Shown here: in pieces, positions 29,739-48,579 of the stretch | Layout of the letters: every line of letters begins with the position of its first letter | Numbering within the stretch: position 1 is the stretch's first letter | DNA from: a virus | Lineage: Duplodnaviria; Caudoviricetes | DNA length: 64,000 nucleotides | Strand: one strand, 5' to 3' | Virus record (IMG/VR): IMGVR_UViG_3300025389_000010 | Location: 128,001 to 192,000 of that record | Notes under the pieces: generated by a model | Seen by the model: only the letters and a program-made list of their open reading frames with translations | Told to the model about the DNA's origin: nothing | The model's database searches: none | Translations under genes and position numbers: made by a program

Positions 29739-30512
29739 TCAAGCATATTTTTGCATTTGTACAACATTTTCGGTATTACCACGAAACATTACAGCAGCAA
29801 AACCACAATTACCATGATGTGTTAAAAGTATTTTACATTTAGATACAATCCTGACAACACTTTCAAAATTAATAATCCAATTTGTTTTATCAACTTTTGG
29901 TTTAACATTACCGCCAACATTTTCAAAAAGCATTTCTTCAAAAATAAAAGTATTAGATAAATTCTTAACAAAAAAATCCTTTGCATCTAAAGAATCTGTT
30001 TGTACCAATATTCTATAATTTTCACCAAAATCTTTTGCCACTTTTACCCAAACATCTAAAGGTGTTGGTTTAACTTCTGTAAATTTATCATTACCTCTAT
30101 GGAAAACACAAAGAGTATTTTCATAATCTATATTATATTTGTTTTCTAAAAAAGAAATTCTTTCTAATACTAAATCAGAAGGATTAAAAAAAGCATCGTT
30201 TATTTTTTTTAAATTATCAAAGTCTATATTATCATAGTCAATATAGTTAACATCAAAATTTTTATAATCAAAACCAATATTTATTTTTTTTATATTTTCA
30301 TGATTTGTCCTATAAATTAAATCAAAAACATCATCATTTGGATTTTCTTTATATGGTTTTAAGGTATATTCAAATGATATTTTTTCAGGTATTATTGAAT
30401 TTGAAATTAAACTATAAAGACCAAGTTTAGTTTGATTTATACAAGAATAAAATCCTGCGTTATCTTGATTACCATAAAGAGTATTATTTGCTGAATTATA
30501 ATCAAAACACAT
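29739..30512 (-). CDS. Fucosyltransferase-like glycosyltransferase (GT-B, NodZ/GT11/GT23-like)
   Basis: CVFHRGNDK (HxRxxD), LVQTDS, SKCKILL..HGN motifs. Confidence 0.55.
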   Translation of the reverse strand: MCFDYNSANNTLYGNQDNAGFYSCINQTKLGLYSLISNSIIPEKISFEYTLKPYKENPNDDVFDLIYRTNHENIKKINIGFDYKNFDVNYIDYDNIDFDNLKKINDAFFNPSDLVLERISFLENKYNIDYENTLCVFHRGNDKFTEVKPTPLDVWVKVAKDFGENYRILVQTDSLDAKDFFVKNLSNTFIFEEMLFENVGGNVKPKVDKTNWIINFESVVRIVSKCKILLTHHGNCGFAAVMFRGNTENVVQMQKYA

Positions 30513-30515
30513 AAT

Positions 30516-31325
30516 TTAAAATCTGTATTTCATCATGGGAATTTTATATATTTGTGAACACCTAAGAGACCAACCACTGTTACCATTTTCAGAAAATGAA
30601 TAAATATATTTTGATCCAGACATTATAAAAAAATCAATTAGTGTATTTTTGGTATTTTCCAAAGAAAAGTTTTCTTTAGATCCGATGTGTATTGGTTCAT
30701 TATCTATAAAAGATAAGTTTTCATATTTATCTTTTAGTTTATATTTAACATATTTACAATCTGATGCTATAAAAATCTTTTTATCTCTTTTAGTATCAAG
30801 AGAAATCTGCTCCGATATTGATTTTATAACTTCATCAGATACAGAATCAGTATGATGTAAAAGAAATATATCACCCATTCTTATATGTAAAACTTCATAA
30901 TCATCTAGATTTAAATCATTTTTTATTTGATCTACAGAATCTTTTAAATCTTTTTTTGGTTTAAATGAATTTTTAATAAAATCAAAAAGTTTATCATCAA
31001 AATATATTCCTTCCCAAGGATAAATGTTTGTCAAAACAGCTACCATATTATAATTTTCTAAAAGATATTCAAGAGGAATACCTTTTCCTGCACAATCATA
31101 GAAATCAAAAGGATCACTTGATAAAAAATTATCATTATCTAAAAAATTAGAAATAATATGATTATTATAATCTATATATAAACTGAATTTTCTTTTTATT
31201 GCTTCTGTATATAGATACATCGCACCGCTTATAAAATCACCAAAACCCGGAGGATAAAGGTTATTATCACTTTTTTTTATATGAGTATAAGTCTGTATTA
31301 TTTTTTTGTGCCCGTTATTCATCAT
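30516..31325 (-). CDS. Fucosyltransferase-like glycosyltransferase (NodZ-like)
   Basis: GFGDFISG, VLHIRMGD, IFIASD, TLIDFFIMSGS, SGWS. Confidence 0.6.
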   Translation of the reverse strand: MMNNGHKKIIQTYTHIKKSDNNLYPPGFGDFISGAMYLYTEAIKRKFSLYIDYNNHIISNFLDNDNFLSSDPFDFYDCAGKGIPLEYLLENYNMVAVLTNIYPWEGIYFDDKLFDFIKNSFKPKKDLKDSVDQIKNDLNLDDYEVLHIRMGDIFLLHHTDSVSDEVIKSISEQISLDTKRDKKIFIASDCKYVKYKLKDKYENLSFIDNEPIHIGSKENFSLENTKNTLIDFFIMSGSKYIYSFSENGNSGWSLRCSQIYKIPMMKYRF

Positions 31326-31364
31326 ATATACTTATATGATATGGAGCATCGTATTGGAGTCGAA
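31325..31364 (-). repeat. Duplicated 3' end of tRNA-Cys plus downstream leader (copy of 31974-32013)
   Basis: 36 bp identical (31325-31360 vs 31974-32009); 40 bp with one mismatch. Confidence 0.9.
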
Positions 31365-31413
31365 TTTTTTGCTGATCTTTACTTTTAAAATATTCAATCA
31401 CTAATGTATAAAA

Positions 31414-31971
31414 TTATTTTTTTATACCCCAACATGTTTCTTGTTCTATAGATAACTTATAATTATTATTTTGTATAAATTCATTTACAGCCTTTTTTAC
31501 TCCCGACCAGTGATCGTCATAATCATGCCCCGCGATAATTCCATTGGTTTTAACTTTTGGAAACCATGCTAAAATGTCATTTTTAACATTTTCATAATCA
31601 TGAGACGCATCAATAAAAACAAAATCTAAACTATTATCACTATATAAATTTGCTGCTTCCATTGAAGATAATTTTATTGGATTTATAATATGTTTAACTG
31701 GGTTTATATTTTCTAGAAAAATATTATAAAGATTTTTTTCTTTAACACTTTCTTCGTTTGCATGCTCCGCACTGCCTTCCCACGTATCAACACAATCAAA
31801 TTTTATTTTTTTATTAGAATTTATTATTTCGACTGCCATATAAATAGCACTTTGACCTTGCCACGTACCAACTTCTACAAAATGTGCGCCATCATTTGAT
31901 TGATTTACAATATTGGTATATAAATTTTTAAAATTAAACCAACCGTGTATATTTTCATAATAATGATTCAT
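31414..31971 (-). CDS. Class I SAM-dependent methyltransferase (Methyltransf_24-like)
   Basis: VEVGTWQGQS, CVDTW, FVFIDASHDY, GIIAGHDY. Confidence 0.85.
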   Translation of the reverse strand: MNHYYENIHGWFNFKNLYTNIVNQSNDGAHFVEVGTWQGQSAIYMAVEIINSNKKIKFDCVDTWEGSAEHANEESVKEKNLYNIFLENINPVKHIINPIKLSSMEAANLYSDNSLDFVFIDASHDYENVKNDILAWFPKVKTNGIIAGHDYDDHWSGVKKAVNEFIQNNNYKLSIEQETCWGIKK

Positions 31972-31990
31972 ATTATATACTTATATGATA

Positions 31991-32064
31991 TGGAGCATCG
32001 TATTGGAGTTGAACCAATCTACCGGGTTTTGCAGACCTGTGCCTAGCCGCTTGGCTAACGATGC
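31991..32064 (-). tRNA. trnC: tRNA-Cys(GCA)
   Basis: CAGGT-CTGCAAA-ACCCG arm; U73; CCA end. Confidence 0.9.
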
Positions 32065-32065
32065 A

Positions 32066-32311
32066 TTATTTATAATCAACTAAATCTAAAATTTCTTGAA
32101 CTTTTAAAAGTAGTTTTTCAAATTCTAAATCTAACTTAAAAGATTTTGTTGATATATGAGAATGAACCAAACCATCTTCAGGAAAAACATATCTTTGACC
32201 AATTTCCTTTAATTGTTTACCATCAAATTTTCCACTTACTACAATTTTATCATTGTTGTGAATTTCAAATAAAACGTCTCCGTTTTCCTGTTTTGATAAA
32301 ATTGTTTTCAT
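32066..32311 (-). CDS. Hypothetical protein
   Basis: ORF track. Confidence 0.45.
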   Translation of the reverse strand: MKTILSKQENGDVLFEIHNNDKIVVSGKFDGKQLKEIGQRYVFPEDGLVHSHISTKSFKLDLEFEKLLLKVQEILDLVDYK

Positions 32312-32347
32312 TTTTATATCTTATTATATTTATCTACATAAGTCAAG

Positions 32348-32419
32348 GGAGACTATTGGGAATTGAACCCAAATTATAGGTGCCACAAACCTAAGTCCTA
32401 CCATTGAACGATAGTCTCC
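32348..32419 (-). tRNA. trnH: tRNA-His(GTG), G-1 encoded, CCA not encoded
   Basis: TAGGT-TTGTGGC-ACCTA arm; G-1:C73. Confidence 0.88.
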
Positions 32420-32426
32420 ATGAAAA

Positions 32427-32517
32427 TGGCGGGAGCGGTAGGATTTGAACCCACGGTACCTTTAGGGTACGCTCGATCTCAAGTCGAGTGCCTTAAACCG
32501 GACTCAGCCACACTCCC
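32427..32517 (-). tRNA. trnS: tRNA-Ser(TGA)
   Basis: CTCGA-CTTGAGA-TCGAG arm; long variable arm; G73; CCA. Confidence 0.92.
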
Positions 32518-32721
32518 ATTTCTAAAACTTACAATTTTTTATTATTATGTCAATAATTTTTAACAGAATTGAAAAAATTACATAACCCACAAGAAAGACA
32601 AGTAGTATAACACCCAACAAAGCACCATCGTCTGGAGTCAACATAACTAACATATATACTTATTATTTTCAAGGTATTGATTATATTAATATAAATATGT
32701 CCAAGTATAGGTTTCAAAACG

Positions 32722-32793
32722 AGGGAGTGATGAGACTCGAACTCACAACAATTTCGTTGGCAACGAAATGCTCTACCATTGAGCTACACTCCC
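32722..32793 (-). tRNA. trnG: tRNA-Gly(GCC), CCA not encoded
   Basis: TTTCG-TTGCCAA-CGAAA arm; U73. Confidence 0.9.
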
Positions 32794-32884
32794 GATTGTA
32801 TGATAATACTTATACAAAATTTTAAAATGTAAAGATTTTTTATATTTTTGAACATATACTATATCCGTGATTATAAGTATATTT

Positions 32885-33532
32885 ATGAAATGTAAAAATT
32901 GTAATTTAGAATTAAAAGAAAAATCTAAAAATATATTTTGTTCTAAGTCATGTAGTGCAACTTATAACAATAGCAGAAGATTAATTTCAGATTCACAAAA
33001 ACAAAAAGTCAAAAATACATTTAAAAAAAAATATGGAACTAAATTTTGTGTTATTTGCAAGCAAGAACTTTTAATAAGACGAAGAAAAACATGTTCAGAT
33101 AAATGTTTAAAATCTTTACAAAAATCTTATTTAGTTCCAATTACATCTGGTGGTTACAGGAGAGGATCAGGCAAAGGCAAACATGGTTGGTACAATGGTG
33201 TTTACTTTGATAGTACATATGAACTAGCTTTTTATATTTTTTGTAAAAATAAAAATATAAAAATTGAAAGATGTAATGATGTTTTTCAGTATACTGATAC
33301 TAAAGGAATATTTAGAAAATATCATCCTGATTTTAGAGTAAACGGCAAAATAACAGAAATAAAAGGTTATTATACACCAGAAGTAGATTTAAAAATAAAA
33401 GCAGTTAATGAACCAATAGATATTTTTTATAAAAAAGATTTAAATGGAATATTTAAGAGCGTTGAAAAAATAACTGGATTAAAAATTAAAAAACTTTATT
33501 TGCTTTACAAAAGCAGCCCCACTGGTATTTGA
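32885..33532 (+). CDS. Putative homing endonuclease (Zn-finger N-terminus, PD-(D/E)XK C-terminus)
   Basis: FCSKSC, CSDKC, FDSTYELAF, YHPDF...EIKGY; ATG at 32885 follows TAAGTA; 3' end overlaps tRNA-Glu. Confidence 0.7.
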   Translation: MKCKNCNLELKEKSKNIFCSKSCSATYNNSRRLISDSQKQKVKNTFKKKYGTKFCVICKQELLIRRRKTCSDKCLKSLQKSYLVPITSGGYRRGSGKGKHGWYNGVYFDSTYELAFYIFCKNKNIKIERCNDVFQYTDTKGIFRKYHPDFRVNGKITEIKGYYTPEVDLKIKAVNEPIDIFYKKDLNGIFKSVEKITGLKIKKLYLLYKSSPTGI

Positions 33533-33586
33533 AACCAGCCTTTCAGGTTGAAAACCTAACGTGCGAAACCACTACACTATGGGGCC
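33514..33586 (-). tRNA. trnE: tRNA-Glu(TTC), CCA not encoded
   Basis: TTAGG-TTTTCAA-CCTGA arm. Confidence 0.88.
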
Positions 33587-33591
33587 AAAAT

Positions 33592-33667
33592 TGGAGCCAG
33601 CAGTCGGGATCAAACCGACGACCTCAGGTTTACAAAACCCGTGCTCTATCAACTGAGCTATGCTGGC
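33592..33667 (-). tRNA. trnT: tRNA-Thr(TGT)
   Basis: CGGGT-TTTGTAA-ACCTG arm; CCA end. Confidence 0.92.
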
Positions 33668-33670
33668 ATT

Positions 33671-33746
33671 TGGTGGCAGGGGAGGGATTTGAACCCCCGA
33701 TCTTCACGTTATGAGCGTGACGACTTAACCACTTGTCTACCCTGCT
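33671..33746 (-). tRNA. trnM: tRNA-Met(CAT), initiator-like
   Basis: CTCATAA loop; A1xC72 mismatch; A11:U24; CCA end. Confidence 0.88.
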
Positions 33747-34380: not shown

Positions 34381-34410
34381 ATTGTTATATTAACAAATTT
34401 TTTTAGTTTG

Positions 34411-37400
34411 TCAACGAGCTTTTGTATATATCGTAGCTACGCTTGTACCAGCTGTTATTGTAACAAGATTACCAGAAGTTGTTACAGATCCACCAACTTG
34501 CCCAGCATAATACTGACCCGCTATCGTAATACTAGCTGTTCCGTTAGCTCCCGGATCATTACTGTATTTCGATGGAACATTAGTACCGGGATACAACGTG
34601 AAGGCATCACCACCTGAACCCGTACCATTACCTTGACCACTTGGACCTGATTGATTACTTGCGCCTCCGCCAGTAGCAGTATCCTTTATTACATCATTAA
34701 CACTTATATTACTAGATCCTCCACCAACACCATCACTACCAAGATAATTACCAATCTGTGGGGCCGAACCACCTTGACCACCAGCACCTGCTTGTATTTT
34801 TATATAATCACCAGCACGTATTTTAAGAGAACCGCTGCTAGTTGCTCCCGCACCACCACCATTCCCGTTTTTATAATTACCATTAAAGTCAAATTGACCT
34901 TTACCGGCACCACCACCGCCACCAATTAATGCATAATCAATATTAAAAAATACAGGTGTTAATGTTGGCGTTTGTGTTCTTGTTTGTGTTGGTGTTTGTG
35001 TTCTCGTTTGGGTTGCCGTTGGTGTCGTTAGAGGTAAAGCTGCTCCAGCACTTTGGTTATATAAATTATATAAATAAAGTTCGTATATATATTTGATTTC
35101 ATCATCAGATAAACCTTTGTTATATATGATCGCCTCGTCTATAAGACCAGAAAGATTAGTACCAATGATTGGATAAAAGAATTGAATAGGTGCAGCAACA
35201 TCTTGATTATAAAATGTCGCTGTTAAAACTATCTGACCATCTAAATAAATATAAACATATGAACCTCTTCTAACCATAACAAGATGATGCCAAGTGTTAT
35301 TTGTTATTTGTTGTGCGAAGTTACTAATGGAATTACCTCCTATAATTGCTGATAAGCTTCCACTTGAATTATATGATATTTGATAAGTATCATCACGTGT
35401 TCTAAATATTCCAGCAGAGGAGCTATTATTATAAACTTTAAACCAGAAACAAACTGAAAAATCACCAACAAAAGAAATATTATCTCTTGTTATTAAATTA
35501 GATTTAGGATCGTATGAACACGCAACTGCGTTATCACCAGTAAGTCCTGATCTTCCAGCATTAGGAACAGAATATGCTTGTAGACTATTAAGATTAGAAG
35601 AAGTAAATAATGTATAATTGCTATTTACCGAATTATACCAAGGTCCATATTGGGCATTTTCATTAAATGTCCAATATGCCACAGCATTACTATTATCAAA
35701 TATTGATACTGTTATTTTAGGTATAACCGCAAGTGATCTTGCTCCTACGTTACCATTGCTGTTAATCTTTGAAGTGGAAACAAGATTACCTGTAATCGCA
35801 TTAACAAAATACATATAATAGTTACCCGATCCATCTTTTCCTAAACCAAAAACATAAAGATCTTGAATTGTTGTTTTTGATATTTTAAAAATATTTTGAT
35901 TAAACACATCAACTTTCAGATTTAGATTTGTGTCAAAAAGCATGGTTGGCGTTGAACCGTTTATACCATAAGAATTGCTAACATCATAACATGTAACATG
36001 CCCACTGACTGTAGAACCATCAGTTCTTAATATATAAAGTCTATCACCTTTTGAATTTAATAAAATTTTAGAATTAAAACCAGTGGCACCGGAAATTACT
36101 TTATATTTGAAAGTATATTGATTATCTTGACCGATTCTATTACCAGATTTGTTATATTGATACAAATTACCATTATTTGAATACAACCAAATTACGTCTC
36201 TATTAGGATCAACAGCAAATGTATCTATTCCATCATCAAATGGATTAAAACCACCAAAAGAAGCAGACCAGACAAAATCCGTTGAATCTATAGGCGGTAA
36301 ATAATTTCCACCACCAACGGTAGTTTTAACTTTTGTTAAACGATAATCGTTACCAAAATTAGAAAACACATATATTGCGCTTAAACTTTGACCTGATGTT
36401 GTTAAATCATTTGGATCAACAGCCATATCTTGTGGATTGTGGGACAATAAACTACCCAAAACACCAAAATTGTTACCATTAAATGTATTAGTTAATATAT
36501 TGTATTCTACTATACCATTTAAATATGCGATATAAAAATATTTATAGTCTGGTGAAAATTTACATAAGCAATCATCGTAACGTTGAAAAGGATTAAAATA
36601 AGCAGGAGATATTGAAATAGTATTTGAATATAAAAGATTATAATTTGGATCAACGTTATATATTTCAATAGCACCACCTGATGAATTAACAGCATCAACT
36701 GTCACAACCCATATTTGATTTCTATCAGCATTGTATTCAAGCGTTGCAACATAATAATTTTTATTATTATTATAATTTTTTAATGATACTAATAATGAAT
36801 TTAAATTGAATTCTGTGATGTAATCATTACCTGTATTTGAACTACCATCAGGTAAAATTGAAACAAGAGAACCTTCTAATTGTGGAACAGGTGTCGGTGT
36901 CGGAGTCTGTGTAGGAGTTTGAGATGGTGTCTGTGTTTGAGTCTGTGTACGTGTTTGAGTCTGTGTACGTGTTTGGGTCTGTGTTTGAGTCTGTGTAGGA
37001 GTTTGAGTCCGTGTCGTTGTAGGAGTTTGTGTATAAGTAGGAGTCTGAGTTTGAGTCTGAGTTTGTGTTTGAGTCTGTGTCTGTGTTTGAGTCTGTGTAC
37101 GTGTTTGAGTCTGTGTACGTGTTTGAGTCTGTGTTTGAGTCTGTGTAGGTGTGTTTGATGGTACGGGTGTATTGGTTCTTGTGGGTGTTATAATCGGTAC
37201 AGGAACAACGTTTGATGAATTATATATTGTTAATTTAGATGATCCTCTTAAATCGTATCCTGAATTTACGGTTTTTATAATAGGATTTTTTACAGACGGA
37301 TCAGTTGACATGTCTATGGTATAGACATGTCCATAATTTATTAAATAAGCATAATCAAAAACATTTGTAGTTTCTAAATTATAATATTCTGTGGATTCTG

Positions 37401-40400
37401 CTATTAATGGAAATGTTTTGGATTTGAAAAAATTTGATATCCCCGTTGATGGATTATATTTGATATCAAATACGATTAATTCACATTTATAATCAGTATC
37501 AGCATTAAAACTAACAGCATATAAATAAGAATAACCACCTATTAATGAATATGTAAATGTGCTACCATAATCATTAATCGGTATATCTGTAATTGTTGGC
37601 GTTGATGTCGTGCAATCTATTTTTGTTATTTTTTTATTACCATATATAGCTGTATTATAAAAACCGTAGGAAACATAATATATATTATTGTTATTCAAAT
37701 CTCTTATGATTTTTCCACCAGTTGATTTAAACGGTAATGTTACATATGAATTTGAATTTGGTGTATATAAAAATACACTATTACTTGCAGAATTAAGAAA
37801 ATCAAAAGAAGAACAAATTACCGTATTGTCATCATAATTAAAATTAAAATATGGTGGAGATGAACCATCTAATGTTGATGGATAATTGTAACTAATTTTA
37901 TTAATATTGGCGGATGGACCAGAGATAATACTGTATGGTACATACGGTATATTATTACTTCCGTTTGTTAAACTCCATGTGTTATCCAACACGTAAAAAG
38001 CACCGGCATTATTACCGGGTACTGCATATGCAACATATATGTATGGATGATTTTTATCATATGGATTATATGCAATATCTAATATTTGATAATTAAATGG
38101 AAATTGAGGTGAAATTGGGTTTGTACTTGGATCAAATAAACACATTTGTCCCAAGAATGAAAGTGTGTTTAGGTCATATATTAAAACACATGCAATAGAA
38201 ATACCCGGTGTTAAAATAATAATAGTATCATTAAATATAAGATTAATAGAATTTGCTGTATTGTTTGTAAAGTTTACAGCTGCCAATATTTGTTTATTTG
38301 CTTTATGTACTGTTACAGATGTTATTTTTGGTGTAGCATCTGAATTACCTACAGTAATAACAGGATCAATATTTATAGATCCAATTAAAGGATCTCTTCC
38401 ACCACTAACACCAATACCCGATAAATTAGGATCAATTATTTTTATATTTTTATTATCTGTATTGATAATAAATTCATCCGGTATAACAGAAATATCATTA
38501 AAAACACTTTGTATAGAAGGGACATCGCCTGTAATTTGTTTTAAATCAAAACTAACTGAATTAATTTGACATATATTCCTAATTGTATCAGCAGATATTA
38601 TATAAAAATATTTGTTATCATTTGAAATTTTTATATCAGTAACATAATTTTGAGGAGACCCACCAAAACCAGTATTAATAGGAAGAGTTTGTATTGCTAT
38701 TATTGGTGGTAATATGTTTGGATTATTCGTTAATAAAGGAACTGTTGGATACCCGCTATCTGTTAAATTTAAAATTTTAAAATTTCCATTTACTAAAGCA
38801 TATGCAAGTTTTAATTTTTTATCATTTGGGTCCGTATACAATAATTGTGAATGTATTATGCGGTCTCCTCCTGTGATATCAGGATTATATGAAACTGTGT
38901 TTGATGACGTAACATTATTAATATAAATTATTCCCCCATAATAGCTTAGGAATATATCAGTTGTATTATTGGAAAGATTACTATATATTTGAATTTTACC
39001 TCTAGTAAAACCCGAATTAGTAATACTAAATGATTTATTATAAATAAAGGAAATATTTGAAGAAGATGACCATATTTCATATATTAAAGTAGTATTACCG
39101 GAACTTAAATTAAAATTATAATAATAAACAATTAAATTATCAAAAGCATCAACTCCCATATCTTCAAAATTATTATTACTAAAAAGAGTAGGATTCGTTT
39201 CAATCCCAGTATTACTACTACTAAATTGTAACAATGATGATTGGTCGTTTACAATATCATATTTTATTATACCAGCAAAACCTGAATTTGTCTCAACAGC
39301 AAAATATGCAATTGTTGCTTCATTATTAAACACTATTTTTGTTATACCATAAGTTGAATTAAACCCTTGTTTAAAACTATCACCATAGACTAATTTTTTG
39401 ATAAGTTCTTTTGTTCTGATGTCATATATGTTTACCTGTGCATCATACGGAAAAGTATTAGTATTAGTTCTAAAAGCAACATACAAATATGTATTTGATG
39501 GGTCTACTGCTGAATAAAAACCATATTGTCCAACAGGAGAACCAGAAGCAGGAATTTGTTTTAAAAAAAGAGAAGGATCACCATAAGAACCAGCCTCAAA
39601 ATCATTAATGTAAAAACCATTAACACTATCTACGTGTAGTAATGGTGGAATAGAAGTACTAGATGGTGTTACTGATGGTGTCTGTGTAGAAGTTTGTGTA
39701 TTCGTTGGTGTTTGAGTTTGGGTGCGTGTAGGAGTTTGTGTCTGAGTTTGTGTTCGTGAAGGAGTTTGAGTTTGAGTGGATGTCTGTGTAGGAGTCTGTG
39801 TTTGTGTAGGAGTTTGAGTTTGTGTTGGTGTTTGTGTATATGTTGGCGTATTTGTTTTTGTAGGAGTTTGAGTTGAAGTTTGTGTCTGTGTAGGCGTTTG
39901 AGTGTTTGAAGGAGTTTGTGTAACTGTGGGTGTTTGTGTAACACCTGCTGTACTTGAAGCCGTATTTGTAGGAGTTTGAGTTTGTGTCTGTGTAGGAGTT
40001 TGAGTTGAAGTTTGTGTTCTGGTAGGAGTCTGTGTGTTTGAAGGAGTTTGTGTAACTGTGGGTGTTTGTGTAATATCCGGTGTACCTGACACGGTATTCG
40101 TAGGGGTTTGCGTTTGAGTACGTGTAGGAGTTTGTGTTTGTGTTTGAGTACGTGTAGGAGTTTGAGTTGAAGTTTGTGTCTGTGTAGGGGTCTGTGTGTT
40201 TGAAGGAGTTTGTGTAACTGTGGGTGTTTGTGTAACACCTGCTGTACTTGAAGCCGTATTTGTAGGAGTTTGAGTTTGTGTTCGTGAAGGAGTTTGTGTT
40301 TGCGTTTGAGTACGTGTAGGAGTTTGAGTTGAAGTTTGTGTCTGTGTAGGAGTTTGAGTTGAAGTTTGTGTCTGTGTAGGGGTTTGAGTTTGAGTTTGAG

Positions 40401-43400
40401 TTTGAGTCTGTGTTTGAGATAAAGAAAGGGTCGGTGTAGCAGTTGGTGTCGTTAATGGTAATTCCGCCACACTATCTCTTTGATATAAAGAAAAAACATC
40501 CACATCAGTTAAGCCAACATCCCATACGATTGCTTCGTCTATATACCCATTGAAACTGGAACCTGAATTAGTATCATAATAAAAGAAATTAAATGTATCT
40601 GTAAAATTACTTGAAAAACCATAAGGTCCGCTAATAAGATTACCATTTAAATAAAAGTTAACGTCTGAACCGTTTCGGGTTATAACCGCTTGATACCAAA
40701 CAGCTACTGATATTGGTGCCGATGTTATCACAATGTTATTAAATGCAAAATTTAAAACACCATTTAATGCATAAATTTGAATATCACCGTTTCCAGTTTT
40801 AAATAAACCACCACTATTATGGGCATTTGAAATATAAGAATTAAACCAAAAAGAAAAAGTAAAATCACCATTTAAAGGAACTGTATCTTTTGTAGACAAA
40901 AGTGTTTTTTGATTACTTGAATTATTAAGAGTATTAAAAACAGAATTATTTATTTTTCCAACACCAGAACTATTTACTAAAACATTTGGTAGATTTACAT
41001 TATCATTATATATTGTATAATCATTACTAATAGAATTATACCAAGGACCAGCATATGTTGTTGTTTTTATAAACGGTTCGTCAAAAGTCCAGTATGCTAT
41101 AACACCAGATAAAATATTTGGTAATGTTTGAGTTAAAGTTGGTGTTTGTGTTTGTGTTAGTGTATTTGTCGGTGTTGGTGTTCTGGATGTTGTACTTGTC
41201 TGCGTATTTGTGTTTGAAGGAGTCTGTGTTTGTGTGTTTGTAGGGGTCTGACTTTGAGTTTGTGTAACTGTTGGAGTTTGCGTTGCTCCCGCTGTCGGTG
41301 TTCTTGTTTGAGTCTGTGTTTGAGTTGGAGTCTGTGTGTTTGTTTGTGTAGCTGTTGGTGTTTGTGTATTTGACCTAGATGGTGTTTGTGTTTGTGTTAC
41401 TGTATACGTTGGAGTTGCCGTTTGTGTTACACTTGGCGTTTGTGTGCTTTGTGCGGTACTGGTTACTGTATTTGTTGGTGTTTGTGTATATGTTTTTGTC
41501 GGTGTTTGTGTTTGTGTGGGTGAATTACTCTGTGTGTTTGTCGGCGTTGCAGTCTGTGTATTTGTCTGAGTTTGAGTAACAGATGTTGTAGGTGTTGGTG
41601 TTATTAATTCTGCTCTGGCTTTATTATACTCATATAACCATGTAATATCAGCATCAAGAAGAACTTTTTTCCAAATTATTGTTTCATCGATATAACCATA
41701 AAATCTATAACCAAATGAAAATCTTTGATTTCCCGAAAAAGTTTGATTTGAATATGAAAATTGCTTTTGACCGTTTACAAAAATACTAACATTACCATTT
41801 TGCAATGTTATTACAAGATTTTGCCAATATAATGTTGGATCTGTTGGGCTTGTTGTGAAATAATAATATTGAGGCGAAAGCGAATTATTAAAGTATATTT
41901 TTAAAGCAGGAGAAGCACCACCAACAAAAGATACATTAATGAAATTAGGTGAATTACTAGAAGACGGATAATTTGAAATAATTGTACCACTTTGTGAAGA
42001 ATCTGTTACTTTAAACCAAGTTGATATCGTACATATTGCATTAGCTAATGTATTGTCAGGACTTATTACTACTGGATCATGTGTGTCTAAATAACTTGTA
42101 CCGGAAAATACAGCGGCACCGTTTCCTATTACATTTGTACCTATGAATCCTGTTGTACTTGTAGAATCATCATACAACGGATAGTTTCCGGTTAAATCAT
42201 ATCTTACGCCTCTCTGTTCATCAAACGTCCAATATGCAATAATGTCTTGATAAACTTCAGCAGGATCTGATGTTGGTGTTATCGTTTGGGTTGGTGTTTG
42301 GGTTTGAGTTGGTGTTTGGGTTTGAGTTTGACTCGGAGTAGGTGTTTGCGTTTGTGTATTAGATGGTGTCGATGTTTTTGTTTGTGTCGGTGTACCGGTT
42401 TGTGTTCTAGAAGGAGTAAACGTTTGTGTCTGTGTCTGTGTCTGTGTAGGAGTTTGTGTTTGTGACGGAGTCTGCGTTTGAGTCTGTGTAGGAGTTTGAG
42501 TCTGAGTAGCAGTCTGGGTTGGAGTACCTGTTTGTGTAATAGGAGGAGTGGGCGTATTTGTAACAGTCGATGTATTTGTTTGTGTATTTGTATTTGTAGG
42601 AGTCTGTGTTTGTGTTGTCGTCTGCGTTGACGTAACGGTATTTGTAGGAGTCTGTGTTTGAGTTTGAGTTTGTGTCTGTGTAGGAGTCTGTGTTTGAGTT
42701 TGAGTTTGAGTCTGTGTAGGAGTTTGTGTTTGTGATGGAGTCTGTGTTTGTGTCTGTGTTTGAGTTTGAGTGGGTGTGTTTGTTTGTGTAACTGCCGGTG
42801 TAGGAGTATTTGTAACAGTTGAAGTATTTGTAGGCGTGTTTGTATTTGTAGGAGTTTGCGTCTGTGTCTGTGTAGATGTTTGAGTTGCCGTAACAGTATT
42901 TGTGGGAGTCTGTGTTTGAGTTTGCGTTTGAGTCTGCGTTTGTGTTGCTGTCTGAGTCGCAGTCTGAGTAGGCGATTGCGTTGGTGTTAATGTATTTGTA
43001 GGAGTTGGTGTACTTGTTTGTGTAGGAGGAGGAGTGGGTGTACTAGTAACCGTTGCCGTGTTTGTAGGCGTATTTGTCGGTGTACCCGTAGCAGTTTGGC
43101 TAGGAGTTTGAGTGTTTGTCGGTGTACCTGTTTTTGTGGGAGTATTCGATCTAGTCGGTGTTCTTGTTTGTGTACTTGTAGGTGTTGGTGTTAATGGTGT
43201 AGTTGTTGGTGTTATGGTATTTGTCGGTGTATTTGTTGGTGTTTTTGTGGGCAACGCGATACCGTAAATATCCGTATAAACAATCGGACTTCCAAGACCT
43301 GTTACGAAATCATATCCTTTTACGCTTGGCAAAGGATTGCTTCCTGATGTTATATCATTGTAATAATTGCTATAGTTATCAGCAGCAAATTTATAAAACT

Positions 43401-44424
43401 GTGCAAGTACACCTTGTGAGTTAAAATATAAATTACCGTATGTTGCTTTTCTTGCTAACAATGCTGCCCACTGTGGCGCACCTGCGCTAGTACCACCAAC
43501 ACTAATCCAACCGTTTTGATTTGTAAAAGGATCTGTAAATTTAACAGCAACATAAGCACCGGCATTATATGCAACATCGGGTACACCTCTTCCCGAATAA
43601 ATGTTAAATCCCTTTTGAAAATCAGGTACTGGATTTATTTTGCTATATCCACCACCGCTATAACTCCATGCTGTTTCTACAAAAGGACCGGTATTATTAT
43701 TATAATTTTGTGCATTTCCACCCGATAAGACCGTGCCACCAACGCCTATTACATAATTTGATGATGCTGGATAATTGACTTCCTCACCGTTATCACCGGA
43801 TGATGCAACGAAAACACAACCTTTGTTTTTAAAGACTGTATCATCAGTGCTACCAGAATTAAAATAAAAAATATCTTCTGGACCACCAAAACTCATTGAT
43901 ACGATTTTTGCACCTAATGTATCAACTGCATATTGAACAGCTGCAAATAAATTAGCTGAACTACTATCTTGTGCAACGACAACGACAATATTAGCTTTTG
44001 GTGCCATTGCGTATGCATATTGAACATCAAGTGATGTTTCAATTGCCCAATGTGTTAAATTGTCTACTTGATTAACTGGTACATTGTCCCAATCAGTTTG
44101 GCCTTGTGGATAATAAATGGTTATTGTTTTATTAGGTAATCCAAATTGAGAACAAAAATCATTAAAATCTTGTTGTAAAAACTTGCTACCGTATGCATCA
44201 ATTATATAAATCGTTTGACCTTCGCCTTGTTGCTGTACCTGATCAAAACCATAATAAGAAGAAAGTTGTGAAGGTAAAAGAAATTCTCCGTTTAAACTAC
44301 CAGCCATTGGTATAAACCCAATCGGCTTTGGTGGTGTGGAACCACTAAGAGCAGAACCTTCTGTTTTTGTTAAAGGGTTATACCAATGTAAAAAAGGATT
44401 AAGATTTCCTACAACATTGCTCAT
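34411..44424 (-). CDS. 3337-aa protein: S53 (sedolisin/kumamolisin-like) peptidase, Thr/Gln/Pro-rich linkers, three LamG-like domains, beta-rich regions, Gly-rich C-terminus
   Basis: ETSLDVQY, SMSFG, ASSGDNG, RGVPDV, GGTSAGAP, GYDFVTGLGSP; three AYWTF.E...DE..I LamG units; TQTPT repeats. Confidence 0.85.
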   Translation of the reverse strand: MSNVVGNLNPFLHWYNPLTKTEGSALSGSTPPKPIGFIPMAGSLNGEFLLPSQLSSYYGFDQVQQQGEGQTIYIIDAYGSKFLQQDFNDFCSQFGLPNKTITIYYPQGQTDWDNVPVNQVDNLTHWAIETSLDVQYAYAMAPKANIVVVVAQDSSSANLFAAVQYAVDTLGAKIVSMSFGGPEDIFYFNSGSTDDTVFKNKGCVFVASSGDNGEEVNYPASSNYVIGVGGTVLSGGNAQNYNNNTGPFVETAWSYSGGGYSKINPVPDFQKGFNIYSGRGVPDVAYNAGAYVAVKFTDPFTNQNGWISVGGTSAGAPQWAALLARKATYGNLYFNSQGVLAQFYKFAADNYSNYYNDITSGSNPLPSVKGYDFVTGLGSPIVYTDIYGIALPTKTPTNTPTNTITPTTTPLTPTPTSTQTRTPTRSNTPTKTGTPTNTQTPSQTATGTPTNTPTNTATVTSTPTPPPTQTSTPTPTNTLTPTQSPTQTATQTATQTQTQTQTQTQTPTNTVTATQTSTQTQTQTPTNTNTPTNTSTVTNTPTPAVTQTNTPTQTQTQTQTQTPSQTQTPTQTQTQTQTQTPTQTQTQTQTQTPTNTVTSTQTTTQTQTPTNTNTQTNTSTVTNTPTPPITQTGTPTQTATQTQTPTQTQTQTPSQTQTPTQTQTQTQTFTPSRTQTGTPTQTKTSTPSNTQTQTPTPSQTQTQTPTQTQTPTQTITPTSDPAEVYQDIIAYWTFDEQRGVRYDLTGNYPLYDDSTSTTGFIGTNVIGNGAAVFSGTSYLDTHDPVVISPDNTLANAICTISTWFKVTDSSQSGTIISNYPSSSNSPNFINVSFVGGASPALKIYFNNSLSPQYYYFTTSPTDPTLYWQNLVITLQNGNVSIFVNGQKQFSYSNQTFSGNQRFSFGYRFYGYIDETIIWKKVLLDADITWLYEYNKARAELITPTPTTSVTQTQTNTQTATPTNTQSNSPTQTQTPTKTYTQTPTNTVTSTAQSTQTPSVTQTATPTYTVTQTQTPSRSNTQTPTATQTNTQTPTQTQTQTRTPTAGATQTPTVTQTQSQTPTNTQTQTPSNTNTQTSTTSRTPTPTNTLTQTQTPTLTQTLPNILSGVIAYWTFDEPFIKTTTYAGPWYNSISNDYTIYNDNVNLPNVLVNSSGVGKINNSVFNTLNNSSNQKTLLSTKDTVPLNGDFTFSFWFNSYISNAHNSGGLFKTGNGDIQIYALNGVLNFAFNNIVITSAPISVAVWYQAVITRNGSDVNFYLNGNLISGPYGFSSNFTDTFNFFYYDTNSGSSFNGYIDEAIVWDVGLTDVDVFSLYQRDSVAELPLTTPTATPTLSLSQTQTQTQTQTQTPTQTQTSTQTPTQTQTSTQTPTRTQTQTQTPSRTQTQTPTNTASSTAGVTQTPTVTQTPSNTQTPTQTQTSTQTPTRTQTQTQTPTRTQTQTPTNTVSGTPDITQTPTVTQTPSNTQTPTRTQTSTQTPTQTQTQTPTNTASSTAGVTQTPTVTQTPSNTQTPTQTQTSTQTPTKTNTPTYTQTPTQTQTPTQTQTPTQTSTQTQTPSRTQTQTQTPTRTQTQTPTNTQTSTQTPSVTPSSTSIPPLLHVDSVNGFYINDFEAGSYGDPSLFLKQIPASGSPVGQYGFYSAVDPSNTYLYVAFRTNTNTFPYDAQVNIYDIRTKELIKKLVYGDSFKQGFNSTYGITKIVFNNEATIAYFAVETNSGFAGIIKYDIVNDQSSLLQFSSSNTGIETNPTLFSNNNFEDMGVDAFDNLIVYYYNFNLSSGNTTLIYEIWSSSSNISFIYNKSFSITNSGFTRGKIQIYSNLSNNTTDIFLSYYGGIIYINNVTSSNTVSYNPDITGGDRIIHSQLLYTDPNDKKLKLAYALVNGNFKILNLTDSGYPTVPLLTNNPNILPPIIAIQTLPINTGFGGSPQNYVTDIKISNDNKYFYIISADTIRNICQINSVSFDLKQITGDVPSIQSVFNDISVIPDEFIINTDNKNIKIIDPNLSGIGVSGGRDPLIGSINIDPVITVGNSDATPKITSVTVHKANKQILAAVNFTNNTANSINLIFNDTIIILTPGISIACVLIYDLNTLSFLGQMCLFDPSTNPISPQFPFNYQILDIAYNPYDKNHPYIYVAYAVPGNNAGAFYVLDNTWSLTNGSNNIPYVPYSIISGPSANINKISYNYPSTLDGSSPPYFNFNYDDNTVICSSFDFLNSASNSVFLYTPNSNSYVTLPFKSTGGKIIRDLNNNNIYYVSYGFYNTAIYGNKKITKIDCTTSTPTITDIPINDYGSTFTYSLIGGYSYLYAVSFNADTDYKCELIVFDIKYNPSTGISNFFKSKTFPLIAESTEYYNLETTNVFDYAYLINYGHVYTIDMSTDPSVKNPIIKTVNSGYDLRGSSKLTIYNSSNVVPVPIITPTRTNTPVPSNTPTQTQTQTQTRTQTQTRTQTQTQTQTQTQTQTQTQTPTYTQTPTTTRTQTPTQTQTQTQTRTQTQTRTQTQTQTPSQTPTQTPTPTPVPQLEGSLVSILPDGSSNTGNDYITEFNLNSLLVSLKNYNNNKNYYVATLEYNADRNQIWVVTVDAVNSSGGAIEIYNVDPNYNLLYSNTISISPAYFNPFQRYDDCLCKFSPDYKYFYIAYLNGIVEYNILTNTFNGNNFGVLGSLLSHNPQDMAVDPNDLTTSGQSLSAIYVFSNFGNDYRLTKVKTTVGGGNYLPPIDSTDFVWSASFGGFNPFDDGIDTFAVDPNRDVIWLYSNNGNLYQYNKSGNRIGQDNQYTFKYKVISGATGFNSKILLNSKGDRLYILRTDGSTVSGHVTCYDVSNSYGINGSTPTMLFDTNLNLKVDVFNQNIFKISKTTIQDLYVFGLGKDGSGNYYMYFVNAITGNLVSTSKINSNGNVGARSLAVIPKITVSIFDNSNAVAYWTFNENAQYGPWYNSVNSNYTLFTSSNLNSLQAYSVPNAGRSGLTGDNAVACSYDPKSNLITRDNISFVGDFSVCFWFKVYNNSSSAGIFRTRDDTYQISYNSSGSLSAIIGGNSISNFAQQITNNTWHHLVMVRRGSYVYIYLDGQIVLTATFYNQDVAAPIQFFYPIIGTNLSGLIDEAIIYNKGLSDDEIKYIYELYLYNLYNQSAGAALPLTTPTATQTRTQTPTQTRTQTPTLTPVFFNIDYALIGGGGGAGKGQFDFNGNYKNGNGGGAGATSSGSLKIRAGDYIKIQAGAGGQGGSAPQIGNYLGSDGVGGGSSNISVNDVIKDTATGGGASNQSGPSGQGNGTGSGGDAFTLYPGTNVPSKYSNDPGANGTASITIAGQYYAGQVGGSVTTSGNLVTITAGTSVATIYTKAR
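39902..40281. repeat. Exact 86-bp direct repeat (39902-39987 / 40196-40281) inside the Thr-rich linker
   Basis: Identical nucleotide blocks; partial third copy near 40032-40072. Confidence 0.85.
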
Positions 44425-44477
44425 TTATTATTTTATACTTATAAATGAAGTTAATTTTTCAATAAAAATGTTTTTTT

Positions 44478-46178: not shown

Positions 46179-46212
46179 AAAACCCACACGGTTTCGGCTG
46201 TGTGGGTTTTTT
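46179..46212. terminator. Intrinsic terminator between convergent genes
   Basis: AAAA CCCACAC...GTGTGGG TTTTTT. Confidence 0.8.
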
Positions 46213-46639
46213 ATTTGTATTCAAAAAATCTTGCTTTATCTACTTCAAAATCATCACCATTATCTTCAAATACTTTTTTTGTCAATAAAACCGGATCATC
46301 TTTTATACTATAATCAGCTTTCCATGAACCGGTATTATCATATATCCAAAGATTAGTACTTCCTCTTGGAAAAACATATTCTACAAAAGTATGACCATAA
46401 ATATGATCATTTTTTTCACTAGGAATTTTAAACAAAGCAAAGACTATTCTTGACCAGATATTGTGTTTATCAAAGGTATCTTTAAAAATAATAGCTGATG
46501 GAAGACAAGAATTTTCCATTTTTTCTATCTGTGGTTCAGGGTTTTCCAACGGTGCTATATCTTTGGAATTAGAAACATTGTAAGGTATGCTTATAAACAT
46601 TATAAAAAGAATTAACATCAAGTATAATGTTTGTTTCAT
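46211..46639 (-). CDS. Exported protein with putative Cys-His-Asp papain-like triad
   Basis: N-terminal signal/TM; NSCLPSA, GHTFVEY, WIYDN. Confidence 0.45.
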   Translation of the reverse strand: MKQTLYLMLILFIMFISIPYNVSNSKDIAPLENPEPQIEKMENSCLPSAIIFKDTFDKHNIWSRIVFALFKIPSEKNDHIYGHTFVEYVFPRGSTNLWIYDNTGSWKADYSIKDDPVLLTKKVFEDNGDDFEVDKARFFEYK

Positions 46640-46667
46640 ACTAATATTTATATAATATAAATAACAT

Positions 46668-46703
46668 AAAAAAAGGACTAATAAATTAATATTAGCCCTT
46701 TTT
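46668..46703 (-). terminator. Terminator downstream of tmRNA
   Basis: AAAAAGGGCTAATA-loop-TATTAGTCCTTTTT on the minus strand. Confidence 0.75.
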
Positions 46704-46707
46704 AAAT

Positions 46708-47159
46708 TGGTGGAGGCGAGGGGAGTCGAACCCCTGTGTTTAATGTTGAGAAGTATATAATCTTCACATGTTTGGACAAACTTCGTACTTTGGTTGTCTA
46801 AAGGTAACGAGGTGTTGTCAACCTATCCATGTTTAGAGACCTACCTGTATGTGTGATTAACGACCACATACCACCGCTTGCACTTATTTTCGAGTGTCAC
46901 AAGTCCCACTCAACCTATTATGATTTACCAAAGGGATTAATAGGATTACCTTTGGTCCTTATGCTGCGAGGAGGGTCTCTTCCTCGTAACCACAGAGGAA
47001 CTCTGCGGCGTTGTTGAGGATATAGTCTGCTTCAGCTAAGATAGCATCAGTATTATCTTCTGCGTTTATTTGTTTCGATCAGCTTTTAAGGTAGCCAACT
47101 GATCAACTACCACATGCATACATAACATCTAACAATTAAGTCGAAGCCAGTACGCCCCC
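46708..47159 (-). ncRNA. ssrA: tmRNA (452 nt) with a 34-codon tag reading frame at 47063-46959
   Basis: 5' GGGGGCG / 3' CGCCTCC-A-CCA acceptor with G3:U70; TTCGAC 5' motif; GGTTCGACTCC T-arm; resume ATAAAC-GCA; tag ends LLAA*. Confidence 0.95.
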
Positions 47160-47220
47160 AAAATTATTTATCAAAGATCTATATAAATCTTATAACAAAA
47201 ATTATAAAAGTCAACAAAAA

Positions 47221-47247
47221 ACCCTCCTTATAAATAAGGAGGGCTTT
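47221..47247 (-). terminator. Intrinsic terminator after paralog pair
   Basis: CCCTCCTTAT/ATAAGGAGGG hairpin followed by T-run on the minus strand. Confidence 0.75.
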
Positions 47248-47265
47248 ATGAATTTGTTGCCTGTT

Positions 47266-47505
47266 TTAGGCGAATGATATGTTTCCGCTTGAGATAATTT
47301 CAGTAGCTCTTGCTAAAACAGAGTCATTCGACCATTCACCAGCAGCGGTATATTCCTGTTCACCTTGCCAAAGGACGATTCCACGAGGAATGCCTTTGAT
47401 TCTGGCTATAATCTTTTTTTCTAAAAAAAGATCTCTAACTGTTTCTACAACAATTTTATCAATTGTTATTGATTGTGAATTTTGTAGGTTTACGGTTATT
47501 GACAT
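47266..47505 (-). CDS. Small protein, paralog family A
   Basis: VRDLF.EK.IIAR.KG.PR.IVLW.G..EY.AAG.W.NDS shared with 47518-47757. Confidence 0.7.
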   Translation of the reverse strand: MSITVNLQNSQSITIDKIVVETVRDLFLEKKIIARIKGIPRGIVLWQGEQEYTAAGEWSNDSVLARATEIISSGNISFA

Positions 47506-47517
47506 AACATTTTAAAT

Positions 47518-47757
47518 TTATGCCCAAGGAATAGCCGAAAGAGAAAGAACCTGAGTAGCTTGTGCAGTAGCTGAATCATTTGTCCAGTTACCAGCAGCAG
47601 CATATTCAGTTGCACCACTCCAGAGAACGATTGGTCTTGGGAGACCTTTTACTCTGGCGATGATTGTCTTCTCTTGAAACAAATCTCTGACAGCGAGTAA
47701 TTCTACTGCTGAGAGAGATACCGTCTGTTCAGGTTGTGTTACGACATTTATGCTCAT
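47518..47757 (-). CDS. Small protein, paralog family A
   Basis: Tandem paralog of 47266-47505. Confidence 0.7.
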   Translation of the reverse strand: MSINVVTQPEQTVSLSAVELLAVRDLFQEKTIIARVKGLPRPIVLWSGATEYAAAGNWTNDSATAQATQVLSLSAIPWA

Positions 47758-47759
47758 AT

Positions 47760-47832
47760 GTTTTTTAGTTGGGGGTTATGGATTCGTTGTATTCCCCACC
47801 CAACCGGATGGGGCGAATCCTTTCTTTTAATA
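47760..47832 (-). promoter_or_regulatory. Structured 5' leader (GC-rich hairpin, possible pseudoknot)
   Basis: GGATTCG-CCCCATCC-GGTT-GGGTGGGG-AATACAA-CGAATCC between the TAAATA motif and the ATG at 47757. Confidence 0.55.
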
Positions 47833-47871
47833 TTTATCTTTGGCTTTTACTATTTCTAGTAAATTTTAAAT

Positions 47872-48234
47872 TTAAATTGTTTTATAAGCTAAAACTGCAC
47901 CGTGTGATAACTGAATAGCATATATTTGCCCATTAAGTTCAAAACCTTGTGGTAATTCATATGCTGTTAAATTTCCAACAAAGCTATTATCAGCTGTTAA
48001 TCCTGCAATTTTACAATCAGCTACTACCTTTATGGTTTGATAACTTCCTAAATATAAAGTTGCATCATCAATAAAATCAAAACCATTAGCGGTTTCGTTA
48101 TTATTGACAATATAAGTCGCTTGTGCAAACAATGCTCTGTTCTGATCATTGTTGACGGTAACCCAAGAATTATTAAACGCTACGTTTGAATTAAACGGAA
48201 CTGCTGAGAGTATAGGAGATAAAGTTACAGGCAT
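47872..48234 (-). CDS. Small beta-rich protein, paralog family B
   Basis: SWVTVNND..RALFAQATYI.N. Confidence 0.6.
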   Translation of the reverse strand: MPVTLSPILSAVPFNSNVAFNNSWVTVNNDQNRALFAQATYIVNNNETANGFDFIDDATLYLGSYQTIKVVADCKIAGLTADNSFVGNLTAYELPQGFELNGQIYAIQLSHGAVLAYKTI

Positions 48235-48255
48235 AGAATTAAAAATACTTATAGA

Positions 48256-48579
48256 TTATGATGACACTTTTGTTGGTGGAATAGAAGGTTTTGGAAATAA
48301 AGCTAATATGCTCTTTTGAATATCATCATTTGTTTTTCCCAAAAGTTCAGTAATTCTATTTTCAACATCAGTATCGGTAAATTGACCAGCTTGTGTATAT
48401 GTTGGTGTTGTATTTGGACCCCATAAAAGAAGGCTTACGTTTGCTCCTTTAATAAAAGCAGTTGCTGATTTTGAATCATAAGTTATTGACCAATCAATAT
48501 TGTTTAACACAATCGGTGTAATTGGTTTTCCGTTAACTGGATTAGGTGTTAATGTTATTGGTGATGTTAATGTTATCAT
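48256..48579 (-). CDS. Small protein, distant member of family A
   Basis: AFIKG...LLLWG...YTQAGQFTD. Confidence 0.6.
   Translation of the reverse strand: MITLTSPITLTPNPVNGKPITPIVLNNIDWSITYDSKSATAFIKGANVSLLLWGPNTTPTYTQAGQFTDTDVENRITELLGKTNDDIQKSILALFPKPSIPPTKVSS

Follow-up and report, generated by a model that had tools for sequence, protein, structure and literature searches.

The window analysed here is a 64,000-nucleotide (nt) stretch (bases 128,001-192,000, about 30% G+C) of IMG/VR record IMGVR_UViG_3300025389_000010, which is 225,756 bp long and complete by CheckV, and it carries on its minus strand a giant gene encoding a protein of 3337 amino acids (aa). The carrier is an uncultured freshwater T4-like myovirus. 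As judged from alignments and a structural model, the N-terminal head of the giant protein is a catalytically intact S53 serine-carboxyl peptidase and, by its phylogenetic placement, belongs to a phage-type clade in which the S53 heads are N-terminal and sit on interchangeable bodies. The features of the open reading frame (ORF), in window coordinates, are as follows.

34411..44424, minus strand: whole ORF, 3337 aa plus stop, with an ATG start and no internal stop.
44435..44441, minus strand: TAAGTAT late-type motif, resembling the T4 word TATAAATA, 10 nt before the ATG; putative promoter.
44287..44424, minus strand: N-terminal extension, residues 1-46, with an NPFLHWY motif; modelled as a beta-hairpin packed on the peptidase.
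43270..44286, minus strand: S53 (sedolisin/kumamolisin-type) peptidase, residues ~47-385, assigned by profile, AlphaFold 2 (AF2), Foldseek and conserved residues.
42223..43257, minus strand: T/Q/P tract 1, residues 390-734, by composition; degenerate DNA repeats of period 6-54.
41608..42222, minus strand: LamG domain 1, block 735-939 (Laminin_G_3, 1.3e-16, 61.5 bits).
41089..41607, minus strand: T/Q/P tract 2, residues 940-1112, by composition.
40468..41088, minus strand: LamG domain 2, block 1113-1319 (Laminin_G_3, 8.2e-13, 49.2 bits), 32% identical to LamG domain 3.
39607..40467, minus strand: T/Q/P tract 3, residues 1320-1606, including a 162-bp unit repeated 2.3 times with an 89% match; run contigs break here.
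37198..39606, minus strand: globular block 1, residues 1607-2409, for which no family and no homologue was found.
36826..37197, minus strand: T/Q/P tract 4, residues 2410-2533, by composition; run contigs break here.
35653..36825, minus strand: globular block 2, residues 2534-2924, predicted all-beta.
35035..35652, minus strand: LamG domain 3, residues 2925-3130 (Laminin_G_3, 1.2e-18, 68.1 bits).
34954..35034, minus strand: short T/Q/P tract 5, residues ~3131-3157, by composition.
34414..34953, minus strand: Gly_rich_2 C-terminal domain, residues 3158-3337 (Pfam, 1e-06, 29.4 bits).

A sequence-only reading of the stretch had proposed an S53 peptidase with ETSLD, SGD and GGTSA motifs, and the alignment of the head with 27 short relatives bears this out residue by residue. 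In particular, E129, D133, the oxyanion residue D211 and S313 are invariant (28/28), as are the end motifs DIxxGxN and TGLGSP (28/28), and the four residues fall on kumamolisin's E..LD, GDSG and GGTSA in the alignment. When the 28-sequence profile was compared with solved structures, kumamolisin matched at 3.2e-56, sedolisin at 5e-37, human TPP1 at 1e-20 and the best S8 subtilase at 1e-11. The AlphaFold check that the reading had called for returned a predicted S53 fold: the AF2 model built on the same alignment has a mean predicted local distance difference test score (pLDDT) of 89.6 and a predicted template modelling score (pTM) of 0.91, and it is closest to solved S53 structures, with ranks 1-17 of the Foldseek search all S53 (top match kumamolisin-As, E 1.2e-23, template modelling score (TM) 0.70/0.78) and S8 entries from rank 18. 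Pfam gives a Peptidase_S8 match only (residues 139-325, 1.7e-11); both the profile and Foldseek favour S53. The signal depends on the query: a single-sequence phmmer search of the head against the PDB gave a weak S8 match only, and a whole-protein Pfam scan overlooked the peptidase, which was seen when the domain was scanned alone. When residues 1-395 were used in an exhaustive HMMER search, 12,629 cluster representatives passed E<=0.001 and 1,854 passed E<=1e-30; the top one is 52% identical.

The same reading had noted neither a pro-domain nor a signal peptide, and both statements hold for the giant gene. The predicted fold starts at about residue 47, leaving no room for a prodomain of ~180 residues, and no Pfam prodomain (Pro-kuma_activ) match was found in the head. 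There is no hydrophobic N-terminus or other sign of a secretion signal, hydropathy over 12-residue stretches peaking at 1.02 within residues 1-60, versus 2.0-3.2 in nine bacterial relatives. The extension (residues 1-46) thus corresponds to neither element; its residues 11-30 are modelled as a beta-hairpin on the catalytic domain, with a pLDDT of 88-91 (AF2).

In a FastTree phylogeny of 220 S53 domains, the window's head falls into a 19-member clade with a support of 0.995, together with four T4-like phage loci (L012, L013, L015 and L019) and 14 database proteins of 372-1567 aa, two of which lie on contigs (218,581 and 225,420 bp) about as long as the record itself. All members but one have the domain start inside the first ~36 residues (18/19, proteins as called or taken); the exception is P0074, whose domain envelope runs from residue 36 and whose YYGF fold start lies beyond residue 75. 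A prodomain is absent in all 19, and a signal-like N-terminus is found in none of them, versus all nine of the bacterial relatives checked. The missing propeptide, correct for this gene, is therefore no peculiarity of it: it is the rule in the clade and common in the bacterial relatives. Ten members besides the window's head also carry a K/N-P-x-x-x-W-x-Y motif in their extension (L012, L013, L015, L019, P0049, P0051, P0052, P0055, P0063 and P0074).

The clade's 0/19 count for signal peptides is what an intracellular protease acting on host or phage proteins would show, with the lectin-like body incidental to that role. Such a role is improbable: LamG, the mucin-like linkers and the PA14 or GLEYA modules of relatives are of extracellular type, S53 chemistry is known to prefer acid pH, and a 10-kb gene would be a costly way to make a cytoplasmic protease.

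Beyond the clade, a scan of viral contigs with an alignment-based pattern found 37 S53 loci, whereas single-query searches for related viral loci (with the head, P0052 or P0051) gave nothing. The four catalytic residues are kept in 29/29 viral loci examined; these cover 29 of the 37, with eight left out (L016 and L018 among them), and the search pattern itself demanded the LD of the ETSLD motif. Further, 43 proteins from databases, 1835-3481 aa long and, to judge from the few that are named, bacterial, share the S53 domain at 31-46% identity to the window's head, and in 38 of them the domain begins within the first 144 residues, before unrelated adhesin-type repeat bodies.

The body of the giant protein is rich in linkers and in lectin-fold (concanavalin-A-like) LamG domains. 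The whole protein contains 586 Thr, 305 Ser, 305 Asn, 258 Gln, 227 Gly and 225 Pro residues, and Thr makes up 17.6% of the gene's codons. Four long T/Q/P-type tracts, three LamG-like domains and a Gly-rich C-terminus had been read from the letters, and each was recovered here: the four main tracts, delimited by a sliding window with T+Q+P+S of at least 75%, total 929 residues and are joined by the short fifth; in a piece-by-piece Pfam scan, all three LamG domains exceed the Laminin_G_3 (PF13385) cut-off of 27.6 bits; and the C-terminus exceeds the Gly_rich_2 (PF21722) cut-off of 24.3 bits, reaching 31.1 bits in a second scan and representing the sole copy in the genome. The DNA of the tracts consists of degenerate repeats (period 6-162, 63-89% matches) with no fresh perfect arrays. 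LamG domain 3 has weak PHROG matches to 'baseplate wedge subunit' and 'virion structural protein' families. For the Gly-rich end, no solved relative was found by sequence and a tblastn search gave no GenBank phage match, to which the low-complexity filter may have contributed.

The beta-propeller-like regions of the sequence-only reading were neither borne out nor contradicted. Block 2 is predicted all-beta, with 21 strands and almost no helix, in a single-sequence AF2 model whose pLDDT of 39.9 makes it unreliable; neither a propeller family match nor a propeller homologue was found. In particular, blocks 1 and 2 had no credible Pfam family (the best being Beta-prop_IP5PC_F, E 0.098) and no NCBIfam propeller match, NCBIfam giving sub-threshold matches only for the giant protein; the head, both globular blocks and the C-terminus had no PHROG match. 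Blocks 1a, 1b and 2 show no mutual or internal similarity by BLAST, and no relatives of blocks 1 and 2 were found in five related phage records (16-85% complete, none at least 90%), nor of the orphan blocks among 8,000 scored candidates of 451-1437 aa. Giant proteins gave matches of only 2-7% coverage for residues 1600-3337, and the best ESM Atlas score for block 2 was 0.77, with no lead.

A frame of this length could also be an assembly chimera, with separate genes joined via similar T/Q/P tracts. No RNA run was among the sequencing runs listed for the giant gene. It is present in two runs labelled freshwater metagenome, whose contig sets (X1 and X2, two studies, one of which may be the source sample) hold all unique blocks at an identity of at least 99%, with 0-1 differences. 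In favour of a chimera, the run contigs break in tracts 3 and 4, none of those listed spanning them; the summed contig depths differ by block (52 versus 33 versus 28 in X1; 22.8 versus 18 versus 13.6 in X2); and a minor X2 contig of depth 3.4 links position 43005 backward to 41469 via 23 other letters. It is nevertheless very improbable. The unique blocks end in tract sequence on the expected sides, and the sole start lies in the first block and the sole stop in the last, so that the order is forced if the three blocks come from one genome. Moreover, the reading frame stays open across every tract of a sequence with 30% GC, the tracts are not identical copies but degenerate, and the relative P0052 follows the same plan of an S53 domain, a long TQ tract and a LamG-like body. 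Separately, the X2 joint suggests that length or copy variants of tract 1, LamG domain 1 and tract 2 (window 41469-43005) occur in the population.

Within the clade, the heads are conserved and the bodies are exchanged. The body of L015 (635 aa) is a PT tail only; L019 and P0055 have a PT tail followed by an end domain of ~100 residues that is 54% identical between them; P0052 (1449 aa) has a long TQ tract and then LamG-like and other domains; and further bodies end in PA14, GLEYA or LamG. None of the relatives' bodies is similar to that of the giant protein. Around the L015 head, all genes lie on one strand: the tail-sheath stabiliser comes first, then the genes of a 1618-aa protein and of the S53+PT protein; next is a 774-aa protein that combines an arylsulfotransferase-type propeller with a LamG domain, and the portal and a 1134-aa protein follow. 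In L012, the S53 gene (1574 aa) comes after a gene for a 1496-aa VWA protein; the next three genes encode proteins of 262, 268 and 498 aa, the last of which has a Gly_rich_2 end (4.5e-9) and a 'virion structural protein' PHROG match.

The L012 locus has a counterpart in the phage that carries the giant gene. In a BLAST search against that phage's proteome, L012 residues 424-1574 are 40% identical, end to end, to the 1148-aa product of the gene at 24731-28177 of the record (g24731-28177). This protein lacks an S53 head; its gene carries a TAAGTAT motif of its own and lies in a region of large fibre and baseplate genes. The 262-aa and 268-aa neighbours are conserved beside g24731-28177 and the genes are syntenic, and the counterpart of the 498-aa protein is a 232-aa protein without the glycine-rich end (region 22434-24729). 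At the level of aligned genes, this is a clear case of domain shuffling between the appendage genes of related phages; the domains at the two ends of the giant protein (S53 and Gly_rich_2) are, in the related phage, joined to other proteins of a structural-type cluster. Neither the 1148-aa protein nor the Gly_rich_2 protein of L012 had a GenBank phage match by tblastn, again with a possible contribution of the low-complexity filter.

The same loci bear on the possibility that the giant protein is a polyprotein, its head cutting the T/Q/P tracts in cis or in trans to free the LamG, all-beta and Gly-rich modules. Such processing would fit the L015 and L012 loci, where comparable modules are separate adjacent genes (S53+PT; propeller+LamG; a Gly_rich_2 protein), and kumamolisin-type enzymes cut Pro-rich, collagen-like sequences. 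However, those neighbouring genes share no homology with the other modules of the giant protein, tracts of PT type generally resist proteases, and relatives that consist of a head and a PT tail have nothing to release, which together leave a polyprotein with little probability.

The upstream region links the gene to others of the same phage. The T4 late-promoter word TATAAATA occurs 35 times in the window, versus 12 expected, and a looser word derived from upstream regions, TAARTAT, has 236 instances in the genome, 68 of which lie within 30 nt upstream of 61 of the 271 ORFs (4.4 expected), mostly 4-14 nt before the ATG. Before the giant ORF, TTATAAGTATAAA ends 10 nt before the ATG. TAARTAT also precedes the sheath, tube, portal, terminase and head-tail adaptor genes and one fibre gene. 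A conventional scan of the locus for sigma-70 promoters and terminators gave results at the level of shuffled sequence. From these motifs, we infer that the giant gene is a monocistronic late-class gene.

Several further observations concern the same motifs. Were TAARTAT the -10 element, late transcripts would begin with a very short leader or lack one altogether. Examples of the motif lie at window 44435-44441, 48585-48592 and 50237-50244. A second LamG protein of 547 aa is encoded at window 48588-50231 on the minus strand, with TATAAATA 2 nt before its ATG, and the minus-strand gene run at window 46211-52261, mostly with TAARTAT or TATAAATA upstream, may be a late cluster. At the other end of the giant gene, an early-type TTGACA-N16-TAATAT (window 34387-34414, minus strand) overlaps the stop and precedes small ORFs toward the tRNA genes.

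Those tRNA genes, 12 in number (window 26649-33746, minus strand), lie just downstream of the giant gene. The set includes Thr(UGU), Gln(UUG), Pro(UGG), Ser(UGA), Asn(GUU) and Gly(GCC), which correspond to the giant protein's six commonest residues; the match was noted post hoc, and the chance of six named amino acids being among 12 of 20 is 0.024. The gene uses 12.3% of the Thr codons and 10.7% of the Gln codons in the genome's 271 ORFs, with Thr mostly ACA (330/586) and Gln mostly CAA (194/258).

The wider genome is that of a T4-type myovirus. Among 62 ORFs of the window and another 65 large ones, Pfam and PHROGs recognised baseplate, tube, sheath, neck, portal, major head protein, terminase and a gp55-like late sigma factor, together with RIIA/B, DNA polymerase, UvsX, PhoH and ribonucleotide reductase. 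The sheath is ~36% identical to that of the nearest GenBank phages, in its C-terminal half only. A typical cyanomyovirus was discarded as an identity because psbA was not found in the phage genome. The structural modules occupy 12-74 kb and 113-135 kb of the record. T/Q/P-like linkers recur within them: at the strict threshold, PT/TQ tracts were found in three other proteins of the record (29333-33172, 38134-39501 and 72436-73851), all in structural modules, beside a fibre gene or a portal gene. Five glycosyltransferase ORFs were identified through PHROGs at 19862-21151 and 92797-100954; four of the five cluster between the SbcCD genes and the DNA polymerase gene.

The sequence-only reading had proposed a virion appendage that binds glycans and cuts a protein barrier. 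Its domain reading stands, and the proposed function draws indirect support from the late-type motif that the gene shares with sheath, tube, portal, terminase and fibre genes, from the S53-headed relatives inside structural gene clusters of related phages, and from the occurrence of PT/TQ linkers, elsewhere in the same phage, only in structural-module proteins. Tentatively, and with slightly less than even confidence, the giant protein may be a virion-displayed flexible appendage with a protease head, its attachment, substrate and orientation all presumptive. The gene would be transcribed late, alongside the virion genes, and the protein, made in the cytoplasm, would exit with the particle, attached to it as a long flexible appendage. 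By themselves, the linkers would span ~280 nm if extended at the generally accepted ~0.3 nm per residue, and could be O-glycosylated by some of the phage's five glycosyltransferases; virion glycoproteins are known from mycobacteriophages. The LamG, all-beta and Gly-rich modules would tether the particle to glycans, or the protein to the virion, and the S53 head would hydrolyse a protein of the host surface or its surroundings (S-layer, pilus, matrix or capsule protein), in a role likened to that of the tailspike polysaccharide depolymerases. The word 'tipped' in the sequence-only reading presupposes a distal N-terminus. Classical fibres have their conserved N-terminus next to the virion; in the pair of L012 and g24731-28177, the head is attached to a protein that is complete without it, which speaks for the enzymatic end being free.

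A number of findings weigh against an appendage. The gene lies at 162-172 kb of the record, outside the recognisable structural modules, so that by position alone it is no structural-module gene; a structural-module position is found for the L015 and L012 relatives and not for the giant gene. Its surroundings are small unknown, nucleotide-metabolism, homing-endonuclease and tRNA genes: the immediate flanks are small unknown genes, and beyond the tRNA cluster lie deaminase, nucleotidase, homing-endonuclease and reductase genes. L019, the closest relative, whose dCMP deaminase is 93% identical, repeats this neighbourhood, its 647-aa S53 gene lying between nucleotidase and HNH/dCMP-deaminase genes. 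TAARTAT also precedes methyltransferase and HNH endonuclease genes and is therefore no specific marker of virion genes. No segment of the giant protein matches a proven virion protein beyond weak LamG-level PHROG matches (1e-5 to 1e-9), and no trimeric-fibre features were seen in it. For the head, no PHROG family was found, and the sole match in 50,697 GenBank phage records is a Bacillus phage SP-15 protease at 26%. Tracts 3 and 4 are bridged by no independent contig among those listed. Finally, the S53 enzymes studied need a prodomain for folding and acid pH for activity. (In a separate observation on the L019 locus, the ORF at L019:2279-3271, five ORFs upstream of the S53 gene, matches a PHROG of 2-aminooxy adenylosuccinate synthetase, PurZ-like.)

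The position of the gene, shared by L019, would suit the main rival explanation, a soluble protease-lectin outside the particle that accumulates in the cytoplasm and is freed at lysis, either to destroy receptors and surface proteins on debris and neighbouring cells or to loosen the matrix for the dispersal of progeny. Consistent with such an enzyme, the bacterial relatives are free or stalked secreted enzymes, the ~930 residues of disordered linker without fibre repeats are unlike a classical fibre, and the L015 version, an S53 domain with a PT tail, has no obvious anchoring domain. The L015 and L012 versions nonetheless lie inside clusters of large structural-type genes, the L012 body is orthologous to a protein in the fibre/baseplate region of the giant gene's own phage, and the PT/TQ linkers are otherwise found in structural-module proteins; on this evidence, a lysis-released enzyme is rather unlikely.

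The virion appendage could be part of a broader pattern, which we put forward as a speculation more likely wrong than right. Freshwater T4-like phages would use a prodomain-less sedolisin as a swappable N-terminal 'warhead' on virion appendages, the first proteolytic counterpart of the tailspike depolymerases; here it would be mounted on a glycosylated tentacle of ~0.3 micrometre that catches hosts and strips their protein coat, with translation helped by the adjacent tRNA-Thr, -Gln, -Pro, -Ser, -Asn and -Gly genes. To our knowledge, most virion-borne enzymes described so far degrade sugars or peptidoglycan. If phage surface proteins do carry a conserved, catalytically intact protease head, this would indicate protein barriers (S-layers, pili, protein capsules) as the targets, and host-range biology would gain a new enzyme class. 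The clade also comprises natural S53 enzymes that are predicted to fold without the supposedly required prodomain, which makes them of interest for protease folding and engineering. Among the titles and opening lines of abstracts returned by a literature search, none described a phage sedolisin; the search also found nothing on PF21722, nor on a subtilisin-like tail fibre with an S-layer in phage.

Compared with known systems, the S53 enzyme family and the concept of an enzyme-bearing appendage are established, and the phage form is new and undescribed. The head shares with kumamolisin, sedolisin and TPP1 (MEROPS S53; PDB 1t1e, 1gt9, 1sn7, 1ga1, 3edy) the same predicted fold, the Ser-Glu-Asp triad, the oxyanion Asp and the conserved 'DIxxGxN ... 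TGLGSP' end motifs. It differs from them in that it lacks the ~180-residue prodomain and the signal, has a 46-residue extension instead, is phage-encoded and is followed by a body of 2950 residues. The prodomain is a trait of the characterised S53 members and not of the catalytic domain family. Among viruses, the best structural matches (BFVD) are the S53 proteins of giant viruses (Terrestrivirus, Sylvanvirus, Homavirus and Barrevirus), with good TM scores of 0.73-0.76 at 24-27% identity, the phage entries there being S8-like with a TM of ~0.5 or less; the giant-virus proteins are 521-972 aa long and, in the giant-virus loci of the viral scan, their domain starts 120-280 residues in and falls outside the phage-type clade.

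The 43 giant bacterial S53-headed surface proteins follow the same plan, with a head at or near the N-terminus (38/43) and a long adhesin-type body. Their bodies, built from GloVer, VCBS, Big, Kelch or delta-60 repeats, are unrelated to that of the phage protein, none of them belongs to the 19-member clade, and the short bacterial relatives checked carry signal peptides (9/9). The closest systems are the S53 proteins of related T4-like phages (L012 and L013, ~1570 aa; L015, 635 aa; L019, 647 aa; P0051, 963 aa; P0052, 1449 aa), whose heads are 44-52% identical and which have the same extension motif, a PT/TQ linker after the head and, in several, LamG- or pentaxin-type modules. The giant protein is 2-9 times longer than these, its body is not homologous to theirs, and it alone among them combines three LamG domains, two orphan blocks and a Gly_rich_2 end in one frame. 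The tailspike and fibre depolymerases, such as the P22 tailspike and the K1F endosialidase, share with it the concept of an appendage enzyme that clears a host surface polymer ahead of adsorption; they are glycosidases or lyases in rigid trimeric beta-helices and proven parts of the virion, whereas the giant protein is a predicted protease on a flexible, probably monomeric string with a putative place on the virion.

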